A stretch of 64,000 nucleotides of DNA from Candidatus Woesearchaeota archaeon (lineage in GTDB: Archaea; Nanobdellota; Nanobdellia; Pacearchaeales; GW2011-AR1): positions 141,180 to 205,179 of the forward strand of contig CAYJQB010000001.1 of assembly GCA_964372205.1 (NCBI GenBank), in the 5' to 3' direction. A model generated the notes under the pieces. That model was not told the DNA's origin. It did no database searches and worked only from the letters and a program-made list of their open reading frames with translations. How positions within the stretch are numbered: position 1 is the first letter of the stretch; the number at the start of each line of letters is the position of its first letter. The translations under genes and the position numbers were made by a program. Below are positions 6,678 to 60,490 of this stretch, piece by piece.

Positions 6678-6704
6678 TTTTTATTTCTTAAGATTCTAAA
6701 TGTG

Positions 6705-9700: not shown

Positions 9701-9778
9701 AGCTTATCGCAGCTTGCCACGTCCTTCATCACGATCCAAACCAAGCTATCCATCTACTAGCTCAAATATAATCAGATT
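6705..9778 (-). rRNA. rrl: 23S ribosomal RNA
   Basis: Conserved 23S blocks appear as reverse complements: the sarcin-ricin loop GGTTCCTCTCGTACTA (6905-6920); GGATAACAGGCTTGTCG (revcomp at 7110-7127); GGATAAGTGCTGAAAGCATCTAAGCACGAAGCC (about 6815-6850); and the 5' domain GGATCGTGATGAAGGACGTGGCAAGC (revcomp at 9711-9736). Ends are approximate, within about 30 nt. Confidence 0.85.
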
Positions 9779-10856: not shown

Positions 10857-10927
10857 TGGACTCGCCGGGAATCGAACCCGGGGCCCCCCGGTGCAAGCGG
10901 GGCGTTTTACCACTAGACTACGAGCCC
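10857..10927 (-). tRNA. tRNA-Ala (UGC) in the rRNA spacer
   Basis: Reverse complement reads GGGCUCGUAGUCUAGUGGUAAAACGCCCCGCUUGCACCGGGGGGCCCCGGGUUCGAUUCCCGGCGAGUCCA. Anticodon loop is CUUGCAC (UGC). A G3:U70 wobble in the acceptor stem is the alanine identity element. The spacer position is typical of archaeal rRNA operons. Confidence 0.85.
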
Positions 10928-11669: not shown

Positions 11670-13112
<1,443 letters not shown>

Positions 13113-40195: not shown

Positions 40196-42772
40196 TTACC
40201 ATTTCACCTTTTTGAAGGCATAACTTATCTGTTCTCCCTTCCAGCCAGCCTTCTTAAGATGAGCTCTTATTTTAAGGCCGTTCAATCCTTTCTCTTTAGC
40301 ATTTCTGACAAAATTTGTAATATTGAAAAGGTCAACTCTTTTAGGAAACAGCTTGTTTTCATAATGCCTCTTATACCACAATCGCCCCAAAACGAAGGCT
40401 AATATCCCTCCAAGAACAATTACAATTATTACAAAAACAGCAGCCCCATAAGGTCGGCAGTCAGTCGGGCAGTTATTCCTATTCTCACCTCTATCTTCCT
40501 CACATACTCTATCGAAATCACATGAAATAATAGGCTCATAACCACCAAAAGTGTCTGTGAACGGAGATACGTAAGTTGCAAGGTCATTAGGTTTCACAGA
40601 GCCGGATATTGCAAACTCAATGCTACTCAACCCAGATGCTGGAATTTTTGTAGCGCCCAATACATCTTCCTGCCCGTAATCTCTTGTAAATGTTATCTGG
40701 TCTATAGGGAAGTCGATAATCAAGAAAGTATTGCTCAAGCTCCCTTTTGGAGTTATTTGCATATGAAATTTTGTGAGTACTGGCTCATTACCATTGTCAT
40801 ATTTTGCAAACACTTCCTCAAAATTTATTGTAGCAGCAACGTTTGCACTCATCCAGGTGATTATATCGTTTTTTAAGGAATCTCTTGCATCAGCGCCAGT
40901 CACATTAGCATTGCTCAATGCAGATATATATTCAACATCCAGCGAGTTCAATCCGATTTCAATTGGAACAGTTCCTCTAATGCTTGAATTGACTCCTGAA
41001 GGAACATCAAGCTCCATCAAGTCAAGCATTATATCTTCAAACTGTTCATCCGTAGTCGAGTTCTTGAATCTGCTGTCCAAATTTTTTACATTTGTATCTA
41101 ACGAATCCAACTGAATCAAATCCTTAATTTCAGTTTGAATCCATAAGGGGTAAGCATTCAAACTATCTTTAGTAAGCTGTATTTCTTTTTTGTAATCCTC
41201 CAAAGTCATATTAGCAGATTCTCTTGCATCTCCAACAATTACCTTGAAAACGCTCGTAGCAGTCTGTCTATTGATATCAGTGATTGTAACGCTGACATTG
41301 AATTCTCCCTGTTCAGTGTAAGTGTAATCAAGAGTTTTAGAATTTGAAGTCTTTATGTTCCCGTCCCCAAAATTCCATCTTACATTAGTTACATTCCTAA
41401 AAGTAATAACACTGAATGTCGCTTTTTTTCCAAATGAAACAAACTTGGGAGAGATATCAAAACCGAATCCTCCGGAAATATTTATGTCCACATTTATCAA
41501 AGATTCATCATCAATCATTAACTCAATATAGTCTGCTTCACTTCCTCTTGGTATGACAAATCCAGCCTTTTCAATATCCAACTCTAATTCATCTGTTGAA
41601 AGCGTAGACGGCGTGATAGAAACATCATATAAATTATTATTCTCTAAAGTTCCTGACCCAGATGCCTGATATTTGACGGATACCTCACTAATAGTCAAAA
41701 TCTGATTAGCTCCTATGAATTCAATTGGAACAATACACTTCGGATTGCAAGAATTTCCGTAATTCTCTTGAATATACCTCTCAACATCGTTCAATAAGTT
41801 TTCATTGGTTAATGAGTTATATTTTTGCGGATCAATAGAAATATCTGTGCTTCCGTACATGAGGTTTTTTGCAAAGATTTCATAATCTATTGAGTTGCTT
41901 CCAGCTCCAGGATTATTCGTCCCACAGGGTTCAACAAATTCCACTCTTATCTTGTAGTCAGAAGTATCTGTAGCGCTTATACATGCATAATAATCTCTGT
42001 TGACTGCTGAAGAGAACTCAACTACACACTCTAAATCTTGTGTTGACGAAGAGTGCCTTGGAAGGGTACAACTTCCAAGAGGATATCCTTCCATATCAAT
42101 AAGACTCATATTCAGCCGTGCATTTCCAGAAGTGCCGTTGATAACTCTCGCTCCAAGCTTGAAAGCAGGTCCTTCAGGAAGAGTCATCTTCTCACAGAAC
42201 TTATTAGGAAAAACAGGAATTTGAGTTTCTTGATAATCAGAGTTCTCAAGATAATCTTCAAAACATCCGTATTTAGTAGAAAAACATTGCGTATCTAAAT
42301 AAGCGCCTCCAGAGATAAGGTCAAGCCCATCTCCAAGAACATCAATCTTTACAGGACTTGTACAACTTGAGCTTTTATCACTTCTAATTCTAAACTTAAG
42401 GTTTTCCATTTGCGCAAAAGGATTTCCTTGGACTTTAAATCCAACCAGGCTTTCATCAACGGAGAGTTCAAAGGAGTTTGCTATCTCTCCTTCCTGGAAT
42501 CCAGGAATACATCCTGTTCTGCTACAAGTGAATCCAGAACCTTCAGAATAGTTATTAGATTCCAAAAGATCCTTTAGAGTTATTTCTCCATCAAAGTTGC
42601 TAGAAACAAGGGCATCAACAGAAATATCTTCCAGAGTAATATTTATTGTCCCAGATATCATATCCCCTCCAGCATAATTCCTTACAAGGTTCTCACTCTG
42701 CAACTCAACTCCTGCAATCACAATGCTTGCAAGGATAATCGTGCACAAAACAAGTCCAACAAATCTTCGCAT
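40196..42772 (-). CDS. giant cell-surface protein with PKD domain, signal peptide and C-terminal TM anchor
   Basis: Signal peptide MRRFVGLVLCTIILASIVIAG. PKD-like block WNFGDGNIKTSNSKTLDYTYTEQGEFNVSVTITD. A C-terminal TM helix and a basic tail. Confidence 0.55.
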   Translation of the reverse strand: MRRFVGLVLCTIILASIVIAGVELQSENLVRNYAGGDMISGTINITLEDISVDALVSSNFDGEITLKDLLESNNYSEGSGFTCSRTGCIPGFQEGEIANSFELSVDESLVGFKVQGNPFAQMENLKFRIRSDKSSSCTSPVKIDVLGDGLDLISGGAYLDTQCFSTKYGCFEDYLENSDYQETQIPVFPNKFCEKMTLPEGPAFKLGARVINGTSGNARLNMSLIDMEGYPLGSCTLPRHSSSTQDLECVVEFSSAVNRDYYACISATDTSDYKIRVEFVEPCGTNNPGAGSNSIDYEIFAKNLMYGSTDISIDPQKYNSLTNENLLNDVERYIQENYGNSCNPKCIVPIEFIGANQILTISEVSVKYQASGSGTLENNNLYDVSITPSTLSTDELELDIEKAGFVIPRGSEADYIELMIDDESLINVDINISGGFGFDISPKFVSFGKKATFSVITFRNVTNVRWNFGDGNIKTSNSKTLDYTYTEQGEFNVSVTITDINRQTATSVFKVIVGDARESANMTLEDYKKEIQLTKDSLNAYPLWIQTEIKDLIQLDSLDTNVKNLDSRFKNSTTDEQFEDIMLDLMELDVPSGVNSSIRGTVPIEIGLNSLDVEYISALSNANVTGADARDSLKNDIITWMSANVAATINFEEVFAKYDNGNEPVLTKFHMQITPKGSLSNTFLIIDFPIDQITFTRDYGQEDVLGATKIPASGLSSIEFAISGSVKPNDLATYVSPFTDTFGGYEPIISCDFDRVCEEDRGENRNNCPTDCRPYGAAVFVIIVIVLGGILAFVLGRLWYKRHYENKLFPKRVDLFNITNFVRNAKEKGLNGLKIRAHLKKAGWKGEQISYAFKKVKW

Positions 42773-42773
42773 G

Positions 42774-45107
42774 CTATTCCTCTTTTTGTCTCATTAAAAA
42801 GTATATCATTACGACAATTATTCCTGCAACAATAAACTGATTGAAGTCAAAGAATCCTAAATCAACAGAGGGGGAACCGCAAAGAACGACTATAGATTCA
42901 TTCACACATAGAACATCATTAGGATTCCCAATTCCACTATATTCTGCAGTCACTTCAACATCTCTATATCCATCTATACACTCACCCATTTCGTAGGTGT
43001 ATATACAACTGTCGTCATCATCGTCTGAATGTCCAGTTCCAGAGCCAGTATAAGTTTTGTTGAAATAACATTGTTCATTATCTGTTCTCCAAGAACAACT
43101 ACACTCAACTATATCTCCATTGTAATAACTGCCACATTCAGGTTCTTCATTCCAGCCAGGAAGGTCCTCATCAAGGATGTTAGCAGCATCATTCACACAA
43201 TCATTTTGATTTTGATAATCCTGACAAAGTTCTATCTCAGTGTCTTCTCCGAGGCATCTGACTACTCCAGTGCCGTCATCAGCACAAACAAAATCATCTC
43301 TACAACAATCGTCTGCAGTTCTTGCTTGTCCATCAACTCCAACACAAGCTCTATTGACTGTTTGAGTATCTTGAGGGATTCCAGCTTTTCCATTATCATT
43401 CAATGGCAACCAGGAATTGCCTCCATCGACACACTGTCCTAAGTCAAATGTCCTTTCAGTTTCCTTTGTCAGAGAGAAGAAGCTATTTGCGAATTCATAC
43501 TTGAATATTATAATTCTCCTTCCTGCAAAATTATCTCCAAATAACTTGCTTCCAGAAACATAATCTCCTCCAGAGCCTGCATCAAAGTCTCCGTCTTCAA
43601 AATTCCATGTGAAGTTACTTTCAGTGGTGAATCCCTTATCTGGCGTGATGATTGGCAAATCGCTCAGAAGACAACCAACAGGGACGTTTTCTGTTCTATC
43701 AGGGCAATATCCTGCAACACAATTTACAGTTGGACAACCACTTCCGAAGCTGTTCACAACAAAACTATCACTTGCATTGTATTTTACCACAAGCCTAGGA
43801 TTATTATTAGGTCCAGATACTTGAGGCACTAGTTCAAGATGGAAAGGTTCATTGACATAAGCCATGATTCCAGGAGATGCTAAGACTACTATCCCTACTT
43901 GATCCTCATCATAAAGTCCTGTATTTATATCACTTACCTTTAATGTAACTGTTTTCTGTCCAGTTGTTGCAAAGGTATATTCAAAAGTCTCCAGGTTGCT
44001 TGTAAAATCATCTTCCTCTATCGTCCACTCAAATTCTAAATGTGATGTGTCATCAGTTCCAGGATCTTGCGTGAACCACACTCTAGTGTTCTGGAAATAA
44101 ACTCCCTTATGTTCCGGAGCAGTTATATTTGCTTTTGGAGGTTCTGGTGGTGCAGCTTCGCAATGTACATTTAATTTATAGCTTATCCTACTGCTCCCAG
44201 GTATGCTGGCATTAAAGAAAAATTCTAATCCTCCATTTTCACAATCAGTTCCGTCGTCTGCACTATCTATCAACTGCTGTGTCAATAGAAGGTTTGCTGT
44301 AGCAAGTCCATTGTTTATACTTCCCGTAAAGGTTCCTATATTATCATCTCCAGAGTCCTTTCTTCCATTGGCATTATCATCATCCCAAGCATCAAAATTG
44401 ACTGTCCCACTCCCAAGATTTGTTTGAGCAACCAAAGTCACAGTCTGATCAATGTATGCTTCTGTTATTCTCTGTCCGGACTTTCTCCACTCAACACTTG
44501 TTATATCTCCACTTTGCTGACAATCTCCGCATAGTTGGTCTTCTCCTACCTCACATATTCCATCATTATCACAAGTTCCACTTCCTCCAGCTGCCGCAGA
44601 ACTACAACACACTTTTGTAGGATATGTTCCTGGCTGTCCTAAATGAGAGTTAGTTCCTGCCCCCTGATACGAATCTGACAAAGTAACAATCTCTTTCTCA
44701 CCAGGCAAATTACAGCTGTATATTGTCGTTCTACAGACTAAATCTCCGTAACATACATAACTATATGCAGAATTTATACCATAAGGCCATTGTGCATGCG
44801 CATTATTCAAAGGATATCCATTGTTCTTTGCAAGTCTTATAACCGCGTTCTCTGGAACCCCATCCCCATTACCATCTATACAATTGTGAGGGTTAGCTCC
44901 AGTGTAAGACTCCCCGTATAGAGAATCATAACATATCTCAAAGCTATAAGGCACCGCTGTGAAGTTCCATTCAGCTCCATGAGAATTACTACTACTGAAC
45001 ATCCTGAAAAGAGTCTGCCCATCAACACAACTTGCTGCGAAAACACCTGAAGACAAGAAAGCTAAACTGACAGCAAAAAATACTCCTAAACCAAGCCACC
45101 TCTTCAT
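42774..45107 (-). CDS. giant Cys-rich cell-surface protein with PKD-like domain, signal peptide and C-terminal TM anchor
   Basis: Signal peptide MKRWLGLGVFFAVSLAFLSSGVFA. More than 45 Cys. PKD-like block EYTFATTGQKTVTLKVSD. C-terminal helix IVAGIIVVMIYFLM. Confidence 0.55.
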   Translation of the reverse strand: MKRWLGLGVFFAVSLAFLSSGVFAASCVDGQTLFRMFSSSNSHGAEWNFTAVPYSFEICYDSLYGESYTGANPHNCIDGNGDGVPENAVIRLAKNNGYPLNNAHAQWPYGINSAYSYVCYGDLVCRTTIYSCNLPGEKEIVTLSDSYQGAGTNSHLGQPGTYPTKVCCSSAAAGGSGTCDNDGICEVGEDQLCGDCQQSGDITSVEWRKSGQRITEAYIDQTVTLVAQTNLGSGTVNFDAWDDDNANGRKDSGDDNIGTFTGSINNGLATANLLLTQQLIDSADDGTDCENGGLEFFFNASIPGSSRISYKLNVHCEAAPPEPPKANITAPEHKGVYFQNTRVWFTQDPGTDDTSHLEFEWTIEEDDFTSNLETFEYTFATTGQKTVTLKVSDINTGLYDEDQVGIVVLASPGIMAYVNEPFHLELVPQVSGPNNNPRLVVKYNASDSFVVNSFGSGCPTVNCVAGYCPDRTENVPVGCLLSDLPIITPDKGFTTESNFTWNFEDGDFDAGSGGDYVSGSKLFGDNFAGRRIIIFKYEFANSFFSLTKETERTFDLGQCVDGGNSWLPLNDNGKAGIPQDTQTVNRACVGVDGQARTADDCCRDDFVCADDGTGVVRCLGEDTEIELCQDYQNQNDCVNDAANILDEDLPGWNEEPECGSYYNGDIVECSCSWRTDNEQCYFNKTYTGSGTGHSDDDDDSCIYTYEMGECIDGYRDVEVTAEYSGIGNPNDVLCVNESIVVLCGSPSVDLGFFDFNQFIVAGIIVVMIYFLMRQKEE

Positions 45108-48860: not shown

Positions 48861-49271
48861 TCAAACATCCAGCACAAAAACAGCTTCCCAGGAATCTTTA
48901 TTTTTCTTCACGTACATTTCAGAATAAGTAGGAGCTTTCACATGGTCAAGATAGGGATAATTAGAGGTTTTATCTCCTTGCAGTTCAGCTTCCAGTTTAT
49001 TATCTCTTAATTTCACTTTTGCTTTTGAAACAATAAATCCTTTCGCATCACTCAAATAAATAAGCTCGTCAATGAAATTGTAGAGTAATGATTCACTATC
49101 TTCTCCCTCAATTTTTATTTTGACTTTCTTTAAAGGTTTTATTTTTTCCCCTCTAGAAACAAAATTAGAGAATGCTAAAGCAGAATTCTCAAATATCTTC
49201 TCAAGGCTCATCCCCCTGATTTTGAACTTCACTTCAGAAGTATGCTCCAGCATTTCTATGTCTTTATTCAT
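48861..49271 (-). CDS. archease (RtcB activator)
   Basis: MLEHTSEVKFKIRG at the N-terminus and DHVKAPTYSEMYV near the C-terminus (archease KAVTYH motif). Start taken at Met6, which forms an ATGA overlap with the upstream gene. Confidence 0.75.
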   Translation of the reverse strand: MNKDIEMLEHTSEVKFKIRGMSLEKIFENSALAFSNFVSRGEKIKPLKKVKIKIEGEDSESLLYNFIDELIYLSDAKGFIVSKAKVKLRDNKLEAELQGDKTSNYPYLDHVKAPTYSEMYVKKNKDSWEAVFVLDV

Positions 49272-49672
49272 TGTGCATTTTTCCACATGAAAAGTCTTAT
49301 CTTTTTTGGAGAATATCCTAAATAAGAAATATCAGAACTTATAACTCTCTCTTGCGCAAAAACCTCTCCAGAAACGTAATTTTCCATACCACATACTTCG
49401 TTGACTTCGCATATTGTGAAAGTGTGGTTAAACGTTCCAGCAGGTATTCTTTTTTCCAAAAAGCGTTCTATCTTTTCTCCATCATCGCTTAGAACAGCCT
49501 TTCTCAATTCGGTGTTCCTAGACATTTCTTCTAATATATCTCTTCCAAGCTCGTCATAGTCAAGTCCGCTAAAATCCGGTCTTGTTTCCACAAAAAGAAA
49601 ATATATGACTCCTATAAGTAGCATAATAGACACACTAGCTTCAATTATTCTTATAATTCCTTTCGAGTTCAT
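49268..49672 (-). CDS. pilin-like protein (class III signal peptide)
   Basis: MNSKGIIRIIEASVSIMLLIGVIYFLF: KG, then hydrophobic residues, with E at +5 after the predicted cleavage. Confidence 0.45.
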   Translation of the reverse strand: MNSKGIIRIIEASVSIMLLIGVIYFLFVETRPDFSGLDYDELGRDILEEMSRNTELRKAVLSDDGEKIERFLEKRIPAGTFNHTFTICEVNEVCGMENYVSGEVFAQERVISSDISYLGYSPKKIRLFMWKNAQ

Positions 49673-49673
49673 T

Positions 49674-50366
49674 TTACCAAACTTTAACAGTAAGATCTGA
49701 AAAAACAGATTCTCCGTCAACATTAATAGATTCTTTTCTTTCTGATTCGCTCCAAACTTCTAAGTCTGCAGGTATTTCCATCTCAGAAATAAAACTACTC
49801 CCTTCCAATATATTGAATGAAAATCCAAACTCAACCCTCCCGGGAAGATTAAATTCTTCTTTCACAGAACTATAAGATTCGTAATAGCTATTGTTAAGTT
49901 CCAATGCAGCTGCCTCACTCCATACTTCTTTTGTATCAGAGCTCGATACAGTAAATTGCCCCTCTTCTAGATTTGTTCCTTGAGAAACGCTTCCAGCATT
50001 ATAAGTTTTTGAAAATTTAACAACAATAAATTTTTCAGAGCCCCTATCTATTACTGCATATCCTCCTTCATACTTAGACGGAAGAAAGTCTCCTGCATTG
50101 TTTTCAGCTCTGACGTTGTATCCTTTAGGATTTTCTAAAGGAATTCCTACAACTCCCTCATTTACCTGATTATCGATGACTACAGAGTAAGTTATCAGTT
50201 CAACACTTATGTTTTGAGATATTTCATCCATAGCATAATCTATTGAAGATTCAACAACCCTATCAACATCCAAAGGATTGAAAAAGTATAACGCGAAGAC
50301 TAAAAATCCCATAAAAAGCACAAAAGCCAGAATGACTTCAACATGCCCCATCCCTCTTTTTTCCAT
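49674..50366 (-). CDS. pilin-like protein (class III signal peptide)
   Basis: MEKRGMGHVEVILAFVLFMGFLVFALYF. Confidence 0.45.
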   Translation of the reverse strand: MEKRGMGHVEVILAFVLFMGFLVFALYFFNPLDVDRVVESSIDYAMDEISQNISVELITYSVVIDNQVNEGVVGIPLENPKGYNVRAENNAGDFLPSKYEGGYAVIDRGSEKFIVVKFSKTYNAGSVSQGTNLEEGQFTVSSSDTKEVWSEAAALELNNSYYESYSSVKEEFNLPGRVEFGFSFNILEGSSFISEMEIPADLEVWSESERKESINVDGESVFSDLTVKVW

Positions 50367-50407: not shown

Positions 50408-51178
50408 GTGTCTATGTTAAATAATCTGGTTGAAGAAATAAAAAAGAAAAAGGAGTTTAGGGGCATTTCTTCAGAGTTTGTTTCGGGAGTTCTTCAAAGT
50501 TTTTTAAAGAAAAATAACATTTCCTTTCCTCAAGGAAAAAGAGAAGAAAAACTTATAGTAAAATCAGTCAGAGCAGAACTCAGAAGATTCACAGGGCAGT
50601 ACCAGACTTCATCAAATGGTAAACAAAGAGAAGAGCTCTTAAAACAAGGAAAAATGAATGAGTTACTTTCAACACACGTTTCCACAAAAGAAAGATTGTC
50701 TTTCTATGACGAACTTATATCAGAGATAAACAAGTTAAATCCCTCATCTATTTTGGACTTGGGCTGTGGGCTAAACCCCTTAGCCATTGCAACAAAAAAG
50801 GTCAAATATTATGCTTGTGATATCCAGGAAGATGAGTTAAAACTAGTCTCCGAATTTTTCAAGTTAAATCACATACCTGGAAAATCTTTCTACTGCGACC
50901 TAAGAAATGAAATAAATCTTCCAAAAGCAGATCTTTGTCTAATATTCAAAGTCTTTGACCTTCTAGACAAAAAGGGCCATGCAGTTTCAAAAAGAATTCT
51001 CTCAAATCTAACTTGTAGGAATATAATAGTCAGTTTCTCAACAAAAAAATTATCAGGCAGAGCTATGAACAATCCCAGAAGATACTGGTTCGAAAAGATG
51101 CTGGACTCTTTAGAATATTCTTTCGAAACAAAAAGTTCAGACAATGAAATATTTTATTTTATCCTAAAAAGACTCTAG
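50408..51178 (+). CDS. ArmA/RmtB/Sgm (FmrO)-family 16S rRNA (guanine1405-N7)-methyltransferase homolog
   Basis: STHVSTKERLSFYDEL ... SSILDLGCGLNPLAI ... VKYYACDIQ ... NIIVSFSTKKLSGRAMNNPRRYWFEKM aligns block-for-block with ArmA as I recall it (IHSSTNERVATLNDFY ... SSILDFGCGFNPLAL ... IIYHAYDID ... NFVISFPIKSLSGKE..ENY..WFE). Same length, about 256 aa. Confidence 0.55.
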   Translation: MSMLNNLVEEIKKKKEFRGISSEFVSGVLQSFLKKNNISFPQGKREEKLIVKSVRAELRRFTGQYQTSSNGKQREELLKQGKMNELLSTHVSTKERLSFYDELISEINKLNPSSILDLGCGLNPLAIATKKVKYYACDIQEDELKLVSEFFKLNHIPGKSFYCDLRNEINLPKADLCLIFKVFDLLDKKGHAVSKRILSNLTCRNIIVSFSTKKLSGRAMNNPRRYWFEKMLDSLEYSFETKSSDNEIFYFILKRL

Positions 51179-52019
51179 TCCCAGAAGATATCAGGAATGC
51201 TAAGATTATCATAACAATAGAATGTTTGAAACCAGATTTAACAGTCCCTTCAGAAAGTTTCCCTATCACCAGTCCTGCAAAAAATCCCTGCGTGAGTAGC
51301 AGATAGAGAAAAGGCCTCGCGAGCGCTTCTGGAGAGTAAGTCGAAGTGTTTACATCAGCAAAATTCCCAGAAGCAAGAGTATCAACATTATTGAAAGAGC
51401 CTATAGAATTTATTCCAGAAGTCAAAGGCAGTATCTTGAATTCCATAATAAGCATTATTCCTATGAATATCAAGAATATTATATATCCCTGCACAACTAA
51501 AGTGGACACAGCATTTTTTCTTTCCTTTCTCAACTTCTCTATCTCATAGATGGAATTCGCAACAGAATCTAATATGTGGTCTATTTCTCCTCCAGCATTT
51601 TCCGCTTCCCTTATCAAGCTTATAGCTCTTTTGACAACCTCGCTATCTGCTTCATTAGCAAAGTTTACAAAAGCTCTGCTTATCGGTATCCCTACAGATA
51701 TTTGGTTTGCAAGCTTTTTAACAGCAGGACTTAAGGGCCCAAATCCCTTATCTTTCATGTTCAGTATACTCTTCCCAATAGGTGTTCCTGACTTCACGCT
51801 CTCAGCCAGATTTCTCGAAAATTCCAAAAATTGCTGGTTGATTTCCTGTTCTTTTTTGCTTTCAAGAACCAACCCTGCTAAGATTGGAAGAAGCACCGCA
51901 GTAAAACCTATTCCCAAAAGAAATATGAAAAGCTTGTCACCTAAAAAGAAAGAAATGTCTACGATAACGATAAGCAGACCAAAAATACCTCCAATCCAAT
52001 GCATCTTTCTTATTCTCAT
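51159..52019 (-). CDS. TadC/FlaJ-like pilus-assembly membrane protein (single T2SSF domain)
   Basis: T2SSF-type region VKRAISLIREAENAGGEIDHILDSVANSIYEIEKLRKERKNAVS flanked by TM helices. Confidence 0.55.
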   Translation of the reverse strand: MRIRKMHWIGGIFGLLIVIVDISFFLGDKLFIFLLGIGFTAVLLPILAGLVLESKKEQEINQQFLEFSRNLAESVKSGTPIGKSILNMKDKGFGPLSPAVKKLANQISVGIPISRAFVNFANEADSEVVKRAISLIREAENAGGEIDHILDSVANSIYEIEKLRKERKNAVSTLVVQGYIIFLIFIGIMLIMEFKILPLTSGINSIGSFNNVDTLASGNFADVNTSTYSPEALARPFLYLLLTQGFFAGLVIGKLSEGTVKSGFKHSIVMIILAFLISSGTRVFLG

Positions 52020-52286: not shown

Positions 52287-53615
52287 TTAATATCCTGGTT
52301 GCTTTAATCCCAACAATACTATAAACAATATGTTAACAAGAGCAACGATTAGGATTATTGCTAAAGTCATAGAACTTGTTCCAATACCTATACTGATTCC
52401 TGAGACAGAAATCATTACTAAAAGCAAGAGAAGTATCATCGGAGCAGCTATAACAACGCTGATGTAAATATCCATAAATGTCTCCGCAGTCTTTGTGAAT
52501 TTCTCTCTTTCAAGGCGATAATTAAGAAGCAGTGTCTCAGCCCTTTTTTCCAGGAAAGATTTTAAATCTCCTCCAGTCATTATTGCCGTAGCAAGTCCTT
52601 TCATCAAGTCAGAAAGTTTCTTACTTGGTGTAGACTGAGCGATATTTTTTAAGGCAGTAACGAGGTCATATCCATAAACATTTATTTGATTGAGAAGCTT
52701 TCTTATCTCGCTTCCAGTGTTCCTATATTCCTTACTTGTTCCGATTATTTTGAATATCTGTGTAGGTTCAATGCCACTTCCAGAGATTGAAGCCATATGT
52801 ATTGCTACAAAAGGAAGTTCTCTGTCTATTTTACTTCCAAGTGATTTCTTTTCTGTATAAGGGTAGAAATAAAATGCTGCGAACATAAGTAATGGGGCTG
52901 CTAAGATTATCCAAGACACTTTCAGAATCCGCATTCCAATACTCCCTGCATATGATGTAAGGTATGGAGAGCTGAATTCAACATTGAAGAACAACAAGAA
53001 TACAGTGAAACCTATTCCAATTATTCCTGCAACAATCATCATGACAAACATCATCGACAGATAAGTGGTTGGGAGAATGTTCATATTGCTCTTCCTAAGA
53101 TCAAGTCTTAAGCCTGCAAATTTTCCCTTTTCCAAAAGCTCTTCAGAGAAATTTCTGAAAAGAGAATTAGAAAATTTAGCGAATCCGGCAGATTTTTTAT
53201 ACTCTTTTATTTTATCTTCTTTTACAGAATCTTTTCTCTTTAGTTTTCTCAAAAGCTCTTCACTTATACTCAATTCTTCCAAAAATTTATCTTTGTCCTG
53301 TCCGCGCAAAGACACCTTGATATACCCATTGTTTCTCAGTTTAACTTTAGAATCCGGACCTGCTTCATTCACTTCCAAGGTGAAGATATTCGCCGAAGAT
53401 TTCTTTCCAGGAATTTTCCTGATAAGTGATACGTCCTTCAATATCTCAACAACAGAATCATTTATCAATTTTATTCTTCTTTTATAAGAACCTATCATAG
53501 ACTCTAGAAGTTTTTTTTCATCAACAGATGAGAATTCAGTTCTCTCAATAAATCCGGAGAGTTCCCTGACCATTTTTATTTCATTTTCAATGTTCTCTAT
53601 CAGTTCATCTATCAT
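52287..53615 (-). CDS. TadB/FlaJ-like pilus-assembly membrane protein (cytoplasmic N-domain plus T2SSF domain)
   Basis: 442 aa. A cytoplasmic N-terminus of about 170 aa, TM helices, and a T2SSF-like region (LLNQINVYGYDLVTALKNIAQSTPSKKLSDLMKGLATAIMTGGDLKSFLEKRAETLL). Confidence 0.55.
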   Translation of the reverse strand: MIDELIENIENEIKMVRELSGFIERTEFSSVDEKKLLESMIGSYKRRIKLINDSVVEILKDVSLIRKIPGKKSSANIFTLEVNEAGPDSKVKLRNNGYIKVSLRGQDKDKFLEELSISEELLRKLKRKDSVKEDKIKEYKKSAGFAKFSNSLFRNFSEELLEKGKFAGLRLDLRKSNMNILPTTYLSMMFVMMIVAGIIGIGFTVFLLFFNVEFSSPYLTSYAGSIGMRILKVSWIILAAPLLMFAAFYFYPYTEKKSLGSKIDRELPFVAIHMASISGSGIEPTQIFKIIGTSKEYRNTGSEIRKLLNQINVYGYDLVTALKNIAQSTPSKKLSDLMKGLATAIMTGGDLKSFLEKRAETLLLNYRLEREKFTKTAETFMDIYISVVIAAPMILLLLLVMISVSGISIGIGTSSMTLAIILIVALVNILFIVLLGLKQPGY

Positions 53616-53819: not shown

Positions 53820-55379
53820 TTATTTAGACACGTTCTGTTCAGGGCTCTTAGCGGGTTCCACTACCCCATACTTTCTAAGTACCGCCGCAGGATTTCTATA
53901 GTATTCGTTCACAATCTTCTGCATATCTGCAAAGCCGAAAATACCTGCTTTGTATAGGTTGTAGAGCAACCTTGCTCTTCTAGAAAACTCTACCTGAAGC
54001 TCTTCGAGGCTTGTTCCATACCTTGCAGAAATTTTTTCAAATACTTTACTTTGTTTCTTGAAGAAGAAAGAATCTTTTCCGGCATCCCACACAAGAGGAG
54101 TATTTATCAAAGTGGACCCATTCTTATCAACATTGACAACTTCGACAATCTCTCTTAACCTTCTCGTATGCTTATTTTTTAAGATTGCATGAGTCATAAC
54201 TGCTATACAATCTAAAGTGTTTACCAACGTTGGTGAAAGGTTGATTGGAGGAGTCTGTAATCTTCTTACAACTGTCTCCAAAGAGTCTGCGTGCAGAGTG
54301 CTTATAGAAGGATGACCGGAAGCCATTCCCTGGAAAAGAACAGACGCCTCTTTACCCCTTACCTCTCCAACAATCACATAGTCTGGATTTTGTCTGAAAG
54401 AGTTTTTCAGAAGGTCAAAAAGGTCGACTTGTCCCACCTTTCCAATACCTACAGAGGTTCTAGCTACAGCCGGAAGCCAGTTCTCTCTCGGAAGATTAAG
54501 TTCTCTAGTGTCTTCAATAGAGATGACTCTTGCTTCAGGAGGAATAAAAAATGCAAGAGCGTTCAGGAGAGTTGTTTTTCCAGAAGATGTTCCTCCAGTT
54601 ATCAATATGTTAGACTTGAACTGTATCAACAGCCAAAAGTATGCGAGCATCTCCGGACTTAAAGTATGCAGAGCAATCAATTGCGTTGGAGTCCAAGGGA
54701 CTTTTGTGAACTTTCTTATCGTGAATGTAGGTCCTCGAGAGGTGACATCTTTAGTATAAGTAGCATTTACTCTGCTTCCATCAGGAAGCGAACCATCTAA
54801 CAAGGGATTAGCGTAAGATATGTATTTTCCACTTCTTTGCGAAAGTTTTTCAACAAAACTTGCAAGTTCGTCAACGTTCCTGAATATGATGTTAGTCTTA
54901 AGATTTCTGAACATTCTGTGAACGATGTAAGTAGGAGTATCAACTCCATTACACTCTATATCTTCAATAAAGTAGTCTTTCAATAAAGGGTCTATCTGAT
55001 TCATCCCTATAAAATCTCTATAAAGATAGTAGAACAACCTCTCATAACTTGATTCGCTAATCTTCAGATTAAGCTCCCCTATAAGCAATCTCGCAGTTTT
55101 GTCTATGTACTCAACAAGGCTTTGTAGAGTTTTATCAACAGCAAGATTGACATTTATCATCTCAAGCATAGCTTCCTCTATTTTTTTGAGAGCTATTTTT
55201 TCCTCATCGCTAAGAAGTGGCTCTTCAACATCGTAGACAAGCTCACCTGCATTCTCATCCCAATAGATGTGCGCATTCGCATAAGGAGCTATCAAAGAAT
55301 ACCTAATATCTATCTGAGTTTTATCATCAAATTTCTTAAGTGGAGGGATGCTAGGCCGAACATTTATTTTAATCACCAT
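53820..55379 (-). CDS. FlaI/TadA/VirB11-family type IV pilus assembly ATPase
   Basis: Walker A LITGGTSSGKTTLLNAL; Asp box VISIEDTRELNL; Walker B DYVIVGEVRGKEA; His box LHADSLE. 519 aa. Confidence 0.85.
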   Translation of the reverse strand: MVIKINVRPSIPPLKKFDDKTQIDIRYSLIAPYANAHIYWDENAGELVYDVEEPLLSDEEKIALKKIEEAMLEMINVNLAVDKTLQSLVEYIDKTARLLIGELNLKISESSYERLFYYLYRDFIGMNQIDPLLKDYFIEDIECNGVDTPTYIVHRMFRNLKTNIIFRNVDELASFVEKLSQRSGKYISYANPLLDGSLPDGSRVNATYTKDVTSRGPTFTIRKFTKVPWTPTQLIALHTLSPEMLAYFWLLIQFKSNILITGGTSSGKTTLLNALAFFIPPEARVISIEDTRELNLPRENWLPAVARTSVGIGKVGQVDLFDLLKNSFRQNPDYVIVGEVRGKEASVLFQGMASGHPSISTLHADSLETVVRRLQTPPINLSPTLVNTLDCIAVMTHAILKNKHTRRLREIVEVVNVDKNGSTLINTPLVWDAGKDSFFFKKQSKVFEKISARYGTSLEELQVEFSRRARLLYNLYKAGIFGFADMQKIVNEYYRNPAAVLRKYGVVEPAKSPEQNVSK

Positions 55380-55418: not shown

Positions 55419-55940
55419 CTAAACTTGTTCAAAACTTACTATTTGTATGCCCTCATCTGTAAATCCGTCGTTCTGGAACCTGAATTTATAGGGAACACTG
55501 CTCGATTGGAATATCAAAATCTCATCTGTTCCTTCAAAAGTCAGATTGAACTGATACTCTAATGAAAGCTCAACCTTGTGTTTTTTTGCACCTTCTGTAG
55601 TTAGCACTTTTACTCTTCCTATCTCCGTCTCAACACCAGGTTCAGAGAATAGCAAATCACTATCTTCTAGCACAAAATTTATCTTGTCATTCGCTCTATC
55701 AAATCTAAGTTGCCCTCTTTTCATCCCAAACTCAACAGTCCTAGCATTTCCAACTCCTCCAGATGTTGTTTCAGACAATTTAGAATCCAATGCGTTCATA
55801 GAAGATATAGTTTGTTCAAGAATAGACTTATCCCTGAATTCATTTATTCTAGGTGTGACTATAGCCAATACCACTGCTAACAGAGCAAGCCCTATCAAAG
55901 TGTAAATAACTGTCTCTACCCAAATCTGGCCTTTTTCCAT
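55419..55940 (-). CDS. pilin-like protein
   Basis: MEKGQIWVETVIYTLIGLALLAVVLAIV, with the pilin-type hydrophobic N-terminus. Confidence 0.45.
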   Translation of the reverse strand: MEKGQIWVETVIYTLIGLALLAVVLAIVTPRINEFRDKSILEQTISSMNALDSKLSETTSGGVGNARTVEFGMKRGQLRFDRANDKINFVLEDSDLLFSEPGVETEIGRVKVLTTEGAKKHKVELSLEYQFNLTFEGTDEILIFQSSSVPYKFRFQNDGFTDEGIQIVSFEQV

Positions 55941-55941
55941 T

Positions 55942-56478
55942 TTAATAAGCTAGCAAACTCTGTCTGGCATCATTATCCAAGCAGGTGTTAACTCTTATAG
56001 AATCACTAACATCACAAAGCTTTCCAGACTTCAATATTGCATTGACTTCAAGCTCATCAAATAATCCATCCGCGACATAAGTTCTTACTCCCCCCTTACT
56101 AGGCACATTTAGCTTCGTATCAAATCCTGAACTAAGCATTCTTATCTTTATTCCTAAAGAATTTCCATCAGTTCCATTCATTATCTCCATGACTTCAGAA
56201 GTCCCGTCCTTGAAAAGCGAGACTTTTATTCCAGCGACTTCCTCCCCATTGACTCTCACAGAGAATCCTGTTCTGTTCTTATCTCCTCCATCAACATAAC
56301 AGTTGTAAGGAGTTTCATCAAATTTCACATCTCCAAGAGTGTTTATACATTCTTCACTTCCTTCAAGATTTTCGCTTACAAAAGGAATTACAAAAACAGC
56401 CAGAATGCTTATAGCAACAAAAGTTATTATTAAAATCAGAACAGTAGCGATTATAGGACTTATACCTCGTTTATTCAT
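55942..56478 (-). CDS. archaeal type IV pilin
   Basis: MNKRGISPIIATVLILIITFVAISILA has the canonical KRG-ISP..ATVL class III signal. Confidence 0.6.
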   Translation of the reverse strand: MNKRGISPIIATVLILIITFVAISILAVFVIPFVSENLEGSEECINTLGDVKFDETPYNCYVDGGDKNRTGFSVRVNGEEVAGIKVSLFKDGTSEVMEIMNGTDGNSLGIKIRMLSSGFDTKLNVPSKGGVRTYVADGLFDELEVNAILKSGKLCDVSDSIRVNTCLDNDARQSLLAY

Positions 56479-56527
56479 CACACTCCTCTCCATCTCGTTA
56501 AATGTAGAAATCTCTTTTTATATGTTT

Positions 56528-56989
56528 CTAAATAGTCACTCCAACGCCATATTGGTCAGCGCAAGTATAAGCCACTTTTCCCGCATCAGTCTCTCCAAGG
56601 ATTATAGGAACGACTAGTATTTCGTCATTATCATCAAAATCACTTCCAAGAAGTTTTTTGGTTAAGGTTATAGATTCTCCAGTCCCTACGCTCTCACTAG
56701 TATACTCTGTCACAACAACCTCTCCTTTACCAAATCTCTTTATGTCAAATCCGTATAACGGAGCTTCACCCTGATTGTTTATTTCAAGAACATAATCTTC
56801 TCCAGAAGGAAATATTCCAGCTTGGAATTTAACTTTTCCAGCACATGCATTTTCGGCAGGCTCTCCAAATTTGGAAACTCCTTCTTTGACAAACCCTCTT
56901 GCCCATAAGAAAACTATTGAAGCAAGGATAATAACAATCATTATTAACAATACTGAAGCAATTACCGGACTCAATCCCCTCTTATTCAT
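56528..56989 (-). CDS. archaeal type IV pilin
   Basis: MNKRGLSPVIASVLLIMIVIILASIVFLWA. Confidence 0.6.
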   Translation of the reverse strand: MNKRGLSPVIASVLLIMIVIILASIVFLWARGFVKEGVSKFGEPAENACAGKVKFQAGIFPSGEDYVLEINNQGEAPLYGFDIKRFGKGEVVVTEYTSESVGTGESITLTKKLLGSDFDDNDEILVVPIILGETDAGKVAYTCADQYGVGVTI

Positions 56990-57029: not shown

Positions 57030-58646
57030 CTAAGGGTTAGCTATGCATTCACCCCATCCACATTGGGAAGTACATGTTTGCGTTCCTCCACCGATTTCTC
57101 CACCGCTTCCAGAATCTCCACCATAACTAATAGCGAATCCACCCACTCCACCCCCACCAGTTTGATCTCCCGGAGTGCAATCTCGTATATCTCCTACTTC
57201 ACATATTTCATATCCTTCATCCCATACTCCATTTCCACAATACCCTGCACATCCACCTATATTGAATTTACACTCATTCTGGTTTCCAGGAACATAACAA
57301 CTCAATGTTCCATAGTAATAGTTTCCGTATCCAGGAGAAGGAATGTTTGTACAGTCTTTTCCATTCAGATTGTTTCCGTCACACTCTTCCCATATTTGGT
57401 CAATAAGTCCATTTCCACAGACAGGATTATTTGAATCACATCCATCAGGAACTCCATCACCATCACTATCCTGGTTATCATCAAATCCATCACAAGTATC
57501 GTCTGTGTCACAAACTCCATCTCCATCTGTGTCATCTGGATTGTCAAATGGACACATATCTGCATCATCGCAAATTCCATCTTCATCAGTATCGAAGTTA
57601 GATTGTCCGTAACAATCACATGCATCACCTAATCCATCTCCATCACTATCCTGCTGATTACTATTTGAGTCATAAACACAGTTGTCATCGCTGTCACGTA
57701 CTCCATCCCCATCAGAATCTCTTGGAGTAACTTTCAGTTCATTTGAAGAGTCAATAAACTCATTACCATTTTCTACTAAAAATGCTCTAAAAATATATTC
57801 TGGATTGTCGTTTATTCCATCATCCTGTTCCCACACAGCTGTCCATGTGACTGACGCTACAGCTCCAGAGAACATTACATTCCCAGGCATATTAAAACTG
57901 ACAGCATCTCCATCATCCCAGTTTCCGCTTCCAAATAGGGAATCATCCTCTCTTATCTCAAATCTCACCTCTTTTCCGTCGCAGTACGAATCTCCTCCAA
58001 TAATAAGGTTTACATTTTCTCCCTCTTCTACTTGCGTTGTGCTCCATGATGCGCTAGTCAATCCACACTCCTGCTGATTGTTCCCACCACCATTTCCATT
58101 GTCAGAATCATCAAGCAAGTTGTTCTGAACATCAAAGTTTATACATTGGATTATCTCAAGAGATTTACTAGCCTCACCACATACATGACCATCACTCAAT
58201 ATTGGAAATATATCAACTCTGTCATAAGCACCATTTGCAACATAAATTCTCACTCCTCCCTCGTTATTCGCTTCCAAAGGCAGTCCGAATGACTGCTGAT
58301 AAGACATCCTTAATAGGTTAGAAGTTACACCATCTTCAACATCAACAATTTCTGTGCTTCCACTTTGCAATAATCCTACTCTAAATCCTCTGATGTTCTC
58401 GCTTTCAATTTTTATAGAAAATCCAGTTCTTTGTTTATCTGTATCACTATACCAGCAATTGTAATCAGAGCTTTTATCAAAATTAATTTCATTCAGCGCA
58501 TCAAAACAATCTTCTCTCCCGAATATATCTTTCACAAAAGGAATAGCATATTTTGCAAGCAACCCTCCAAGAACAATCACTACCAATATAATAAGAATAG
58601 TAGCCATAACAGGGCTTATACCCTTTTTATTCAACCCTCTTTTCAT
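57030..58646 (-). CDS. large pilin-like adhesin with thrombospondin type-3 (calcium-binding) repeats and a Cys-rich C-terminal domain
   Basis: N-terminus MKRGLNKKGISPVMATILIILVVIVLG. Central D-x-D-x-D-G-x-x-D-x-x-D-x-C repeats (DSDGDGVRDSDDNC, DSDGDGLGDACDC, DTDEDGICDDADMC, DTDGDGVCDTDDTC, DSDGDGVPDGCD). The C-terminus is rich in G and C. Confidence 0.6.
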   Translation of the reverse strand: MKRGLNKKGISPVMATILIILVVIVLGGLLAKYAIPFVKDIFGREDCFDALNEINFDKSSDYNCWYSDTDKQRTGFSIKIESENIRGFRVGLLQSGSTEIVDVEDGVTSNLLRMSYQQSFGLPLEANNEGGVRIYVANGAYDRVDIFPILSDGHVCGEASKSLEIIQCINFDVQNNLLDDSDNGNGGGNNQQECGLTSASWSTTQVEEGENVNLIIGGDSYCDGKEVRFEIREDDSLFGSGNWDDGDAVSFNMPGNVMFSGAVASVTWTAVWEQDDGINDNPEYIFRAFLVENGNEFIDSSNELKVTPRDSDGDGVRDSDDNCVYDSNSNQQDSDGDGLGDACDCYGQSNFDTDEDGICDDADMCPFDNPDDTDGDGVCDTDDTCDGFDDNQDSDGDGVPDGCDSNNPVCGNGLIDQIWEECDGNNLNGKDCTNIPSPGYGNYYYGTLSCYVPGNQNECKFNIGGCAGYCGNGVWDEGYEICEVGDIRDCTPGDQTGGGGVGGFAISYGGDSGSGGEIGGGTQTCTSQCGWGECIANP

Positions 58647-58681: not shown

Positions 58682-59200
58682 CTAAATACAATTAACAGTC
58701 CTCGTTTGAATAGCATCTGTGCATATAGCAGGGTAATTATCAACAAAGACTACTGGTCCTACTTCCAGTTCCTGTTCACCTAAGTTAGTGTAATTGAAAG
58801 ATTTCATTATCATCTCTCCTGGCTTAAGTCCTTCATCGAGAACTTTTCTTCCATCAGTAGTAGTCTCCTGATTAAAGTAAACATTACATTCATTCCCTCT
58901 TGAGCCTTCAAAGCACAACGTTTCTCTCGCAATCCTGCTAGAGTTTCCTATTTTGACAAAGGCACCATCAACACTGAAAAGTCCTCGATTTTCTAAAGTG
59001 ATATTCAGATAACCTCCAACACATTTTACTTCTCTCACATTCACACTAACATCAGTAGGACATTTAGGATTATCCTTTGGAACATAAAAGTTCAAAAAAG
59101 CATAGACTCCAGCAGCAATCCCTACAGCTATCACAATCAAAAGCACATAACCTACCATCTCACTAAGTCCTTTTCTATCCTTCTGCAACCAAAACTTCAT
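58682..59200 (-). CDS. pilin-like protein
   Basis: KDRKGLSEMVGYVLLIVIAVGIAAGVYAFLNF, with E at +3 after KG. Confidence 0.45.
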   Translation of the reverse strand: MKFWLQKDRKGLSEMVGYVLLIVIAVGIAAGVYAFLNFYVPKDNPKCPTDVSVNVREVKCVGGYLNITLENRGLFSVDGAFVKIGNSSRIARETLCFEGSRGNECNVYFNQETTTDGRKVLDEGLKPGEMIMKSFNYTNLGEQELEVGPVVFVDNYPAICTDAIQTRTVNCI

Positions 59201-59693
59201 CCTCATCCTCCTTGATAACTATGTAAAAGAAGTTATAACCTTTTTTCATTTCAAAGGTATGAGTGGAATTGTCTATAATTACTTTTATCTCTTCTCCTTG
59301 AAGTGAAACATTAGCTTCTTTTCCAGTCTTCCTTTGCACAGGCACAGTAACCCACTCTCCTCCTGTGTCTATCCCTACAACTCCAAGACTTTCTTCTTTA
59401 AAATGCATACCATACAGGTCAGAACTGTTCCCATAGACTGATATGAACTGATCAGAGCCTATATAATCAGAGTAATTGAAAAGGAAGTCAGACGTAAGGT
59501 CTAGGACATTTTCTTCACTGTATGCGCTGTAGTCCATGAGTTCTTTGTTCTCATCCCCAACTTCCTTGGCTAAATCATAGAAATACTCCTTGCTTTCTTT
59601 TACATTCACATAATTGACTATGGTGGTAAGCCCCAAGAGCACCCCTATTATTATGAATGTAGCTACTAAAAAAAACTGCCCTCTTTCGTTCAT
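59175..59693 (-). CDS. pilin-like protein
   Basis: MNERGQFFLVATFIIIGVLLGLTTIV. Confidence 0.4.
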   Translation of the reverse strand: MNERGQFFLVATFIIIGVLLGLTTIVNYVNVKESKEYFYDLAKEVGDENKELMDYSAYSEENVLDLTSDFLFNYSDYIGSDQFISVYGNSSDLYGMHFKEESLGVVGIDTGGEWVTVPVQRKTGKEANVSLQGEEIKVIIDNSTHTFEMKKGYNFFYIVIKEDEDEVLVAEG

Positions 59694-60231: not shown

Positions 60232-60490
60232 TGTAGGCGGGGAGATTGCTCAGCTTCAGCTTGCTGGCTACCTTCCAGCCTTCCTCAACTTTGCACCCCT
60301 ATAAGCACCGAAACTTCTGTTTAGGGCTGCTCCGATCAAGGCCTGACCCTTTTCACAGGAGTACGGTCGAACAGGACAAAGCGTCAACGTCCGGCGGAAG
60401 ACCAAAAAGCCTCCACATCACGCACTCCTTTAAGCCTGCCATAAAGCCCATTTGCAGATAGCGCAGGGCTAGCGCGCCAGCTTGCCTACA
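60232..60490 (-). ncRNA. GC-rich structured RNA candidate, most consistent with SRP (7S) RNA; strand uncertain
   Basis: About 52% GC and non-coding, between divergent genes. Terminal pairing UGUAGGC (60232-60238) with GCCUACA (60484-60490). The minus strand has GGUCAGGCC-UUGAUC-GGAGCAGCC, which resembles the SRP RNA domain IV motif GGUCAGGUCC-GGAA-GGAAGCAGCC. It also has two 5' hairpins (GCGC-UAGCCCU-GCGC and CUUUA-UGGCAGGCU-UAAAG) whose loops are complementary (AGCC/GGCU), like Alu-domain helices 3 and 4. Confidence 0.35.

Follow-up and report, generated by a model that had tools for sequence, protein, structure and literature searches.

In bacteria, modular pilins such as PilB (a pilin joined to a vWA domain) and PilC (a pilin joined to a lectin domain) of Streptococcus sanguinis have been proposed to be tip-exposed adhesins of low abundance (PMC8179133). 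The catalogue of such proteins in that study (Raynaud et al. 2021) was built on the bacterial N-methylation motif, IPR012902, and archaea are not mentioned in it. The subject of this report is an archaeal gene in a stretch of 64,000 nucleotides of contig CAYJQB010000001.1 (assembly GCA_964372205.1), which is referred to as a whole as the window. Its 538-amino-acid (aa) product is very probably a modular type IV pilin, with a pilin module, an immunoglobulin-like (Ig-like) domain, five thrombospondin type-3 (TSP3) motifs and two cysteine-rich units resembling DUF4215. Like the bacterial modular pilins, it combines a class III signal, a small pilin module and a short linker with bulky C-terminal modules, and its gene sits among those of the ordinary pilins of a pilus locus.

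Several other described systems provide precedents for parts of this protein or of its locus. Archaeal type IV filament (TFF) system 1, the Epd-like system, has one ATPase, a platform protein split in two genes and multiple diverse prepilins, and has been reported in DPANN archaea (preprint 10.64898/2026.04.22.720090). In Myxococcus xanthus, the cysteine-rich repeats of TraA have been interpreted as a presentation stalk and the TSP3 repeats of TraB as a calcium-binding linker (PMC12045341). The non-pilin tip adhesins PilY1 and PilC are calcium-regulated according to references cited in PMC8179133.

The pilin module and the layout of the protein

A preliminary description, made from the letters of the window without database searches, had given the extent and length of the open reading frame (ORF) correctly and had named no strand; the gene lies on the minus strand (Table 1). 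The N-terminus of the product, MKRGLNKKG/ISPVMATILIILVVIVLGGLL (here and below a slash marks the predicted cleavage site), scored 22.6 bits against the NCBIfam model of the archaellin/type IV pilin N-terminal domain (TIGR02537, cutoff 20), and processing is predicted to occur after Gly9. A FlaFind-like rule written for this analysis, which looks for [KR][GA] within 25 residues and then an uncharged hydrophobic stretch, was applied to the 121 window ORFs of at least 80 aa and flagged the protein together with four of its five operon neighbours. The archaeal pilin signal and N-terminal helix seen in the preliminary description were thus borne out by both a family model and a motif rule.

What that description had missed was the extent of the likeness. 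Residues 1-178 and the stand-alone 183-aa pilin encoded by the fifth gene of the same operon share 36% identity (E 2e-37), and in an alignment of 26 family members Gly9, Cys47 and Cys64 never vary, while Cys156 and Cys168 are present in at least 90%. In the same alignment the stand-alone homologues stop about 10 residues past Cys168, the point from which the modular members run on, and the Gly/Asn linker of the 538-aa protein starts at the end point of its stand-alone paralogues. A profile of the 26 sequences matched the subunits of solved archaeal pilin filaments, namely 8fk7 (E 2e-5), 9myg, 8fj5, 8gi2 and the Iho670 filament. Judged by these homologies, residues 1-180 are a complete pilin module and not a signal alone.

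The extension beyond the linker is 346 residues long and roughly triples the size of the subunit relative to the stand-alone pilin. The protein has the parts by which a modular pilin is defined, a pilin module (residues 1-180), a short linker (181-192) and non-pilus domains, here four further modules. The number of cysteines is even in each part (four in the pilin module, two in the Ig-like domain, eight in the TSP3 segment and twelve in the cysteine-rich end), as would fit extracellular domains that are disulfide-bonded independently of one another.

The modules of the extension

The core pattern D-x-[DN]-x-[DN]-G-x-x-[DN] occurs five times, from residues 310, 333, 352, 372 and 393 on, at a spacing of 19-23 residues, and the segment that these cores occupy has 33 Asp and 8 Cys in 98 residues (311-408). 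The preliminary description had read at least five tandem repeats of the string D-x-D-x-D-G-x-x-D-x-x-D-x-C in this segment; the number five stands, but the string in full fits only three of the cores (those at 310, 352 and 372). Shuffling of the whole protein produced a mean of 0.09 cores versus the five observed, and shuffling of the Asp-rich region a mean of 0.29, with five or more in a fraction of 5e-5 of 20,000 shuffles. The assignment of the repeats to the TSP3 type, also proposed in the preliminary description, was upheld by the motif scan and by Pfam TSP_3 (PF02412, cutoff 25), to which the whole protein matched marginally with 25.2 bits and the isolated region with 35.6 bits.

Searches of the PDB with phmmer related the TSP3 segment to COMP (3fby, E 4e-24), thrombospondin-2 (2rhp and 1yo8, 2e-16) and thrombospondin-1 (1ux6, 5.5e-10), and weakly to a bacterial OmpA-family TSP3 protein (5wtl, E 0.27). 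The alignments with the calcium-loaded structures of COMP and thrombospondin-2 run motif for motif, with Asp, Gly, Cys, Asn and Gln positions aligned. Motifs 1 and 2 form the canonical long-plus-short thrombospondin pair, DSDGDGVRDSDDNCVYDSNSNQQDSDGDGLGDACD, and match COMP column by column, and motifs 3-5 are in the style 'CPxDNPDDTDGDGVCD' that is common in bacterial matches such as P0003 and P0063. Thrombospondin structures hold two Ca2+ ions per TSP3 motif, and the five motifs of the archaeal protein are likewise predicted to bind Ca2+. A recent horizontal acquisition of the segment found no support in its Asp and Gly codon usage, which matches that of the rest of the gene; its GC content at third codon positions is 0.19, and that of the other modules is 0.19-0.31.

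The Ig-like domain that lies between the linker and the TSP3 motifs is a separate module that went unnoticed in the preliminary description. AlphaFold2, given an alignment of 60 sequences, modelled it as an all-beta domain with a predicted local distance difference test score (pLDDT) of 92.3, and Foldseek comparison of the model with the PDB returned generic Ig-like folds only, at template modelling (TM) scores of 0.4-0.5. Pfam has no match to it, either as a single sequence or across the 60 members, and searches of the PDB found no sequence relative, a profile search giving matches at chance level only. The pair C194/C222 is invariant in the 60-sequence alignment. One to five copies per protein were present in 91 of 273 fetched proteins, the largest of which has 5231 aa, and the consensus of about 115 residues reads C.LTSA.WS...EG..V.L.V.G.NC.G..V.F.V.EDD...W.AEWQ.D...PEYYF (carriers include P0130, P0131, P0140 and P0198). 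It looks like a mobile domain of surface proteins that has not been described before.

Of the last 130 residues, 12 are Cys and 32 are Gly. The Cys/Gly richness of the C-terminus was apparent in the preliminary description, which treated it as one module; it consists instead of two units, with CG[DN]G...E.C[DE] motifs starting at residues 410 and 470. The region scored 14.6 bits (E 0.043) against DUF4215 (PF13948, 'Myxococcus cysteine-rich repeat'), and because this is below the cutoff of 27 the units are named DUF4215-like only; TIGR02232 had no match to the protein at E<=1, and the PDB contained no sequence relative of the module. The region does align with residues 588-700 of the relative P0002 (E 2.5e-11), other cysteine-repeat units of which pass the DUF4215 model. 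The terminal unit has the form CGxG..E.C..C-[loop]-G.Q.C..C.W..C, with a loop of 30 residues of which 57% are Gly or Ser. A terminal unit with a loop of 22-41 aa (37-71% Gly+Ser) was found in the 538-aa protein and eight other representatives, ending at the C-terminus or no more than seven residues before it, and internal copies of this type of unit have a loop of 6 aa.

The family of modular pilins

Residues 1-312 served as the query of an exhaustive HMMER search against 1.84 billion representatives, which gave 987 matches at E<=0.001 and 258 at E<=1e-10; the best 150 were examined. Many of these 150 share the pilin module as stand-alone pilins of about 175 aa, and about 16 further representatives of 50%-identity clusters carry an extension on it (279-940 aa). 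Nearly all of the extended relatives have arrays of cysteine-rich units and most have one or two copies of the Ig-like domain; DUF4215 was matched at E<=0.01 in nine of the ten relatives that were scanned, five of them above the Pfam cutoff. Across the family, the pilin module, the cysteine-rich repeats and the Ig-like domain recur most, and the end with the Gly/Ser loop is present in about half of the representatives.

Among the representatives examined, TSP3 motifs occur in four clusters only, those of the 538-aa protein, P0002, P0005 and P0134, and in all four their place is between the Ig-like domain and the terminal cysteine units. With so few carriers, the TSP3 array looks like an optional and exchangeable spacer, stiffened by calcium, and not like the defining adhesive element of the family. 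The rarity of TSP3 repeats on archaeal pilins that the preliminary description had supposed agrees with this count of four clusters on the pilin module, and no description of TSP3 or DUF4215-type repeats on archaeal pilins was found in the literature covered, which was that of one library only.

The window encodes a second large protein with a class III signal, of 734 aa (13396-15600, minus strand; MEKRG/LSTVVSSVLIILIAIIAVSAVF). It has a pilin-like Cys..Cys / Cys..Cys module and an extension of about 580 aa that has no Pfam match, and its gene adjoins the 16S rRNA gene, far from the pilus operon. Its style of N-terminus is also found in several of the carriers of the Ig-like domain (692-2538 aa).

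The pilus operon

The gene of the 538-aa protein is the third of six consecutive prepilin-like genes on the same strand (172, 174, 538, 153, 183 and 173 aa), which overlap or are separated by gaps of 1-40 nucleotides and lie upstream of the genes for an ATPase and a platform protein split in two, again on the same strand (Table 1).

Table 1. Coordinates in the window of the modules of the 538-aa protein and of the genes of its operon
Feature	Position	Strand	Basis or remark
Whole gene, 538-aa modular prepilin	57030..58646	minus	Single ATG-to-stop ORF; stop codon 57030-57032
Class III signal (residues 1-9) and hydrophobic N-terminal helix (about 10-37)	58536..58646	minus	TIGR02537, FlaFind-like rule
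Pilin globular domain (residues 38-180)	58107..58535	minus	Homology to adjacent stand-alone pilin, 26-sequence alignment
Gly/Asn-rich linker (residues 181-192, SDNGNGGGNNQQ)	58071..58106	minus	Sequence reading
Ig-like beta-sandwich (residues 193-309)	57720..58070	minus	AlphaFold2, Foldseek
Five TSP3 motifs (residues 310-408)	57423..57719	minus	Pfam TSP_3, phmmer
First DUF4215-like cysteine-rich unit (residues 409-469; CGNG...EECDG..., 6 Cys)	57240..57422	minus	Motif, weak Pfam match
Terminal cysteine-rich unit (residues 470-538; CGNG..E.C..C, loop, GTQTC..C.W..C-IANP)	57033..57239	minus	Motif shared with relatives
Operon gene 1, 172-aa prepilin-like (MNERG/QFFLVATFIIIG...)	59175..59693	minus	Slot also filled in L003, L004, L005, L006
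Operon gene 2, 174-aa prepilin-like	58682..59206	minus	Pilin_N 18.7 bits; UpsA 22.6 bits
Operon gene 4, 153-aa pilin	56528..56989	minus	Best pilin N-terminal match of the cluster: Pilin_N 26.0 bits (cutoff 25.2), TIGR02537 36.3 bits; dN/dS 0.03
Operon gene 5, 183-aa stand-alone pilin, paralogue of the modular pilin's N-terminal module	55942..56493	minus	Family models, alignment
Operon gene 6, 173-aa prepilin-like (MEKG/QIWVE...)	55419..55940	minus	Sequence reading; no Pfam/NCBIfam match
Type IV pilus assembly ATPase (T2SSE / VirB11-FlaI class)	53820..55379	minus	Pfam T2SSE, E 4.5e-31
Platform protein, first half (FlaJ/TadC-like, T2SSF)	52287..53615	minus	T2SSF 58.9 bits; ArlJ/FlaJ and UpsF models match
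Platform protein, second half (FlaJ/TadC-like, T2SSF)	51159..52019	minus	T2SSF 61.2 bits; ArlJ/FlaJ C-terminal half

The gene order is common to five other loci that were fetched (L003 to L007); a GTDB locus search with an alignment of four pilin sequences found two loci. In L003, a JGI contig on which the relative P0005 (708 aa) is encoded, the long pilin is preceded by two proteins of about 171 aa and followed by prepilin-like proteins of 157, 177 and 175 aa, the ATPase and two T2SSF proteins, and the 157-aa and 177-aa proteins match Pfam Pilin_N. The order can be followed as far as the ATPase in L006 and L007, two assemblies that contain an ortholog of the 538-aa protein with 90% identity. 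The prepilin order alone is seen in L004, from a metagenome-assembled genome (MAG) of Candidatus Pacearchaeota, whose long pilin has 496 aa from a TTG start and 494 aa as P0125, and in L005, from a MAG labelled 'Nanoarchaeota archaeon', whose long pilin has 311 aa. A gene for arginyl-tRNA synthetase lies upstream of the cluster in the window, L003 and L004, and the products in the window and L004 are 62% identical. From the archaeal 16S rRNA, 23S rRNA and RNase P RNA that the window carries, and from these relationships, we infer that the organism, which is uncultured, is a DPANN archaeon of Pacearchaeota-like affinity.

Three observations on the locus and its surroundings may be added. In L001, an ENA contig with the identical 538-aa protein, no gene is called at the position of the 153-aa pilin (7618-8153), which is present in L002 and L006, and this is probably a gap in gene calling and not a real difference. 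Glu at +5 from the predicted cleavage site, a position that is the hallmark of bacterial type IV pilins, is present in two prepilin-like proteins: one is the product of the sixth operon gene, and the other (49674-50366, minus strand; MEKRG/MGHVE...) is encoded beyond the platform genes and a gene for an FmrO methyltransferase, next to a small ORF (49268-49723) with a class III-like signal. A polytopic membrane protein of 312 aa (33886-34824, plus strand; about nine segments by a crude hydropathy count), the one protease of this kind detected in the window, matches the presenilin-type signal peptide peptidases (SPP family PF06550, 37.7 bits) and is not the class III prepilin peptidase.

Proposed function and alternatives

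The explanation favoured here, which as a whole has a reasonable though far from certain claim to be right, is that the 538-aa protein is a pilus-borne modular pilin of a DPANN archaeon that carries its distal contact surfaces on a Ca2+-stiffened spacer. A prepilin peptidase encoded elsewhere in the genome would cut after Gly9, and the hydrophobic helix and pilin domain would then enter a pilus made by the adjacent ATPase and platform. The modular subunit would be of low abundance and stand at the pilus tip or project from its shaft, as proposed for bacterial modular pilins, because its extension starts exactly where the stand-alone pilin ends and makes the subunit about three times as large. 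Once outside the cell, the TSP3 motifs, five in number, would take up Ca2+ and, helped by four predicted disulfides, make a stiff spacer that depends on calcium. From this spacer a disulfide-knotted end would be held out with its loop rich in Gly and Ser. Contact with a host cell or substrate would most likely be made by the surfaces of the Ig-like domain and of this distal end, since they are the modules most retained in the family besides the pilin module and the generic cysteine repeats.

The chances that the 538-aa protein acts as an adhesin at or near the pilus tip, the role for which the preliminary description had named it a candidate in host or cell contact, appear to be evenly balanced. 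It is a plausible pilus-borne attachment protein, for which we infer incorporation into the pilus, location at the tip, calcium binding and adhesion. A tentative extension of this explanation, possible and yet rather doubtful, would make the third gene of the conserved six-prepilin operon a host-recognition cassette of Pacearchaeota-like DPANN archaea. Its pilin module would be constant and would carry modules in shuffled combinations (Ig-like and DUF4215-like ones and, in a few lineages, TSP3 motifs), and the combination would set the host or surface bound by the pilus tip; the terminal Gly/Ser loop would be the contact site, and where TSP3 motifs are present they would make presentation at the tip calcium-dependent.

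A number of points weigh against the favoured explanation. The Pfam Pilin_N model gave the 538-aa protein only 10.8 bits, against a cutoff of 25.2. No prepilin peptidase (Peptidase_A24) was found among the scanned window ORFs, an absence that says little because the genome has a size of 660 kb or more and the window is only about 10% of it. AlphaFold2 prediction of the full-length protein from its single sequence was poor (pLDDT 42.7), with confidence confined to the N-terminal helix and parts of the pilin domain, and was not used for claims on folds. Most relatives have no TSP3 motifs, including the one closest by its pilin module (P0125, 50% identity), in which cysteine-rich units fill the TSP3 slot, and because they are absent from most members the TSP3 repeats cannot be essential to the function of the family. 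Lastly, class III signals are also found in archaea on surface proteins that form no filament, such as the sugar-binding proteins of the Sulfolobus bindosome.

This last point leads to an alternative in which the protein is a membrane-anchored surface protein that uses its class III signal and pilin-like module for export and anchoring only, as in a bindosome-like structure or a pseudopilus, and is never polymerised, its extension acting at the cell surface, for example in cohesion at the level of the S-layer. The bindosome models BasA and BasF are among the weak NCBIfam matches to neighbouring genes, and the NCBIfam model of MtsC, a protein of Myxococcus cell-cell cohesion, matched the 538-aa protein weakly and over the TSP3 motifs only (28.8 bits against a cutoff of 350), an indication that TSP3 arrays do occur on surface-anchored cohesion proteins. 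It would also suit this alternative that the second large class III-signal protein of the window is encoded away from any pilus genes. However, residues 1-180 are a complete pilin module with stand-alone homologues both in the same operon and in many genomes, the gene has a fixed slot among five other prepilin genes near the ATPase and platform genes in five other loci as well, and the family profile matches subunits that are polymerised in solved filaments. On balance, an anchored protein of this kind is unlikely.

In a second alternative the protein is a pilus subunit with a non-adhesive extension that serves as a structural or priming element, such as a bulky initiator cap, a means of S-layer passage or a length control, with the TSP3 and cysteine-rich arrays as its rigid body, stabilised by calcium and disulfides. 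The precedents for these modules fit such a role, as TSP3 is a linker in bacterial OmpA-family proteins and in TraB and the cysteine-rich repeats have been interpreted as a stalk in TraA, and some Ig-fold proteins of pilus loci have been suggested to prime the cell wall for the passage of filaments (preprint 10.64898/2026.04.22.720090). Pfam scans moreover revealed no recognisable lectin, vWA or other ligand-binding domain in the protein. The number and order of modules nevertheless vary greatly among the relatives of 279-940 aa, which is more typical of surface-recognition proteins, and the Ig-like domain recurs in giant, presumably surface-located, proteins of up to 5231 aa, so that a purely structural role is judged quite improbable.

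The integrity of the gene was assessed from its conservation. The identical 538-aa protein is encoded on four contigs of different NCBI and ENA assemblies. Between the gene and the ortholog with 90% identity (GCA_053534795.1), which is intact in two further assemblies, the Nei-Gojobori ratio of nonsynonymous to synonymous substitution rates (dN/dS) is 0.10 at a dS of 0.49, and taken module by module it is 0.055 (pilin), 0.14 (Ig-like), 0.06 (TSP3) and 0.11 (cysteine-rich units); all five TSP3 cores and all cysteines are kept in the ortholog. With a dN/dS this low, the whole reading frame, in all its modules, is under purifying selection. An artefact, in which a pilin and a secreted repeat protein were joined by an error of assembly or a frameshift, or a gene in decay, might be suspected from the Asp-, Cys- and Gly-rich composition of the extension, which is unlike that of the pilin module, and from the faint TSP_3 match that is all Pfam's precomputed annotation shows, but it is effectively refuted by the four identical contigs, the intact ortholog, the selection across modules, the same fusion architecture in more distant relatives and a codon usage that is uniform along the gene.

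Other features of the window

Two adjacent genes on the minus strand encode proteins of 858 aa (40196-42772) and 777 aa (42774-45107) with hydrophobic N-terminal segments, MRRFVGLVLCTIILASIVIAG... and MKRWLGLGVFFAVSLAFLSSG..., respectively. The 858-aa protein has PKD-domain matches above the Pfam cutoff and the 777-aa protein weaker ones below it, and the two are probably further surface proteins of this small genome. The rRNA genes (6690-9777 and 11670-13112, both minus strand) leave about 1.9 kb between 16S and 23S rRNA, rather a long spacer for so compact a genome, with one tRNA gene in it (10857-10927, minus strand). At 60287-60383 (minus strand), the best Rfam match in the signal recognition particle (SRP) clan is Bacteria_small_SRP, with 41.1 bits against a gathering score of 40, and not the archaeal SRP RNA model; the element may be a reduced or divergent SRP RNA.

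Comparison with known systems

In cultivation, DPANN archaea are found attached to the cells of a host, and pili have been observed where the two meet, although few of the molecules that make this contact are known. The modular pilin family supplies specific candidates for this attachment, putative pilus subunits with variable surface modules of their own that would be stabilised by disulfides and calcium, and their fixed operon slot means that metagenomes can readily be searched for them. Should host surfaces be bound by the extensions, host range could be set against the variation of their modules, and extensions made as recombinant proteins could serve to probe for the hosts of uncultured lineages. 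The family also extends the idea of the modular pilin from bacteria to archaea, and its analysis defines the Ig-like domain, which is about 115 residues long and without a family in Pfam.

The likeness to TFF system 1 and the Epd-like pili (see also Makarova et al. 2016, PMC4858521) lies in the one ATPase, the two platform genes and the six prepilin-like genes; it is a likeness of gene layout alone, and subsystem 4A of some DPANN archaea also has two platform genes (preprint 10.64898/2026.04.22.720090). Unlike Epd-like loci, the locus has no dedicated peptidase of the EpdA type. The word 'thrombospondin' is absent from the preprint; the term was not searched for in Makarova et al. 2016.

The TSP3 motifs share the DxDxDGxxDxxD(N)C pattern of the type-3 'wire' of the thrombospondins and COMP (3fby, 1yo8, 2rhp and 1ux6) and of the OmpA-family protein 5wtl. 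In contrast to thrombospondins and COMP, there are only five motifs and neither EGF domains nor a lectin-like C-terminal domain flank them, and their carrier is an archaeal pilin instead of a protein of the extracellular matrix or, as in the OmpA family, of the outer membrane. Myxococcus likewise has these two kinds of building block on surface proteins, which there mediate cell-cell contact: cysteine-rich repeats in TraA, as a stalk stiffened by disulfides, and TSP3 motifs that are predicted to bind calcium in TraB and MtsC; these are, however, bacterial proteins anchored in the outer membrane or by MYXO-CTERM, not pilins, and the PA14-like variable domain is missing from the 538-aa protein. 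With PilY1 and PilC, and with the 'PilY-like' DUF2341 proteins of archaea (Makarova et al. 2016), the comparison is one of proposed role, that of a large adhesive component which a type IV pilus presents at its tip. They are not pilins but proteins in their own right, with a beta-propeller or DUF2341 domain, whereas the 538-aa protein is itself the pilin and neither domain was detected in it; PilY1-like and other known adhesin domains were rejected, as there were no such Pfam or NCBIfam matches.

The closest parallel in architecture is thus still that with the bacterial modular pilins, and nothing in a modular archaeal pilin is mechanistically unexpected. It differs from them in its N-terminus, which matches archaeal models (TIGR02537 / Pilin_N class) and not bacterial ones, and from PilB and PilC of S. 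sanguinis in its grafts, which are an unclassified Ig-like domain, TSP3 motifs and DUF4215-like units in place of vWA and lectin domains; it lies outside the published bacterial catalogue. The principle of the modular pilin is known; the archaeal family, its set of modules and its conserved terminus with the Gly/Ser loop appear to be undescribed. Should the host-recognition reading prove true, the family would be the archaeal counterpart of the bacterial modular pilins and a molecular handle on the host specificity of DPANN archaea.

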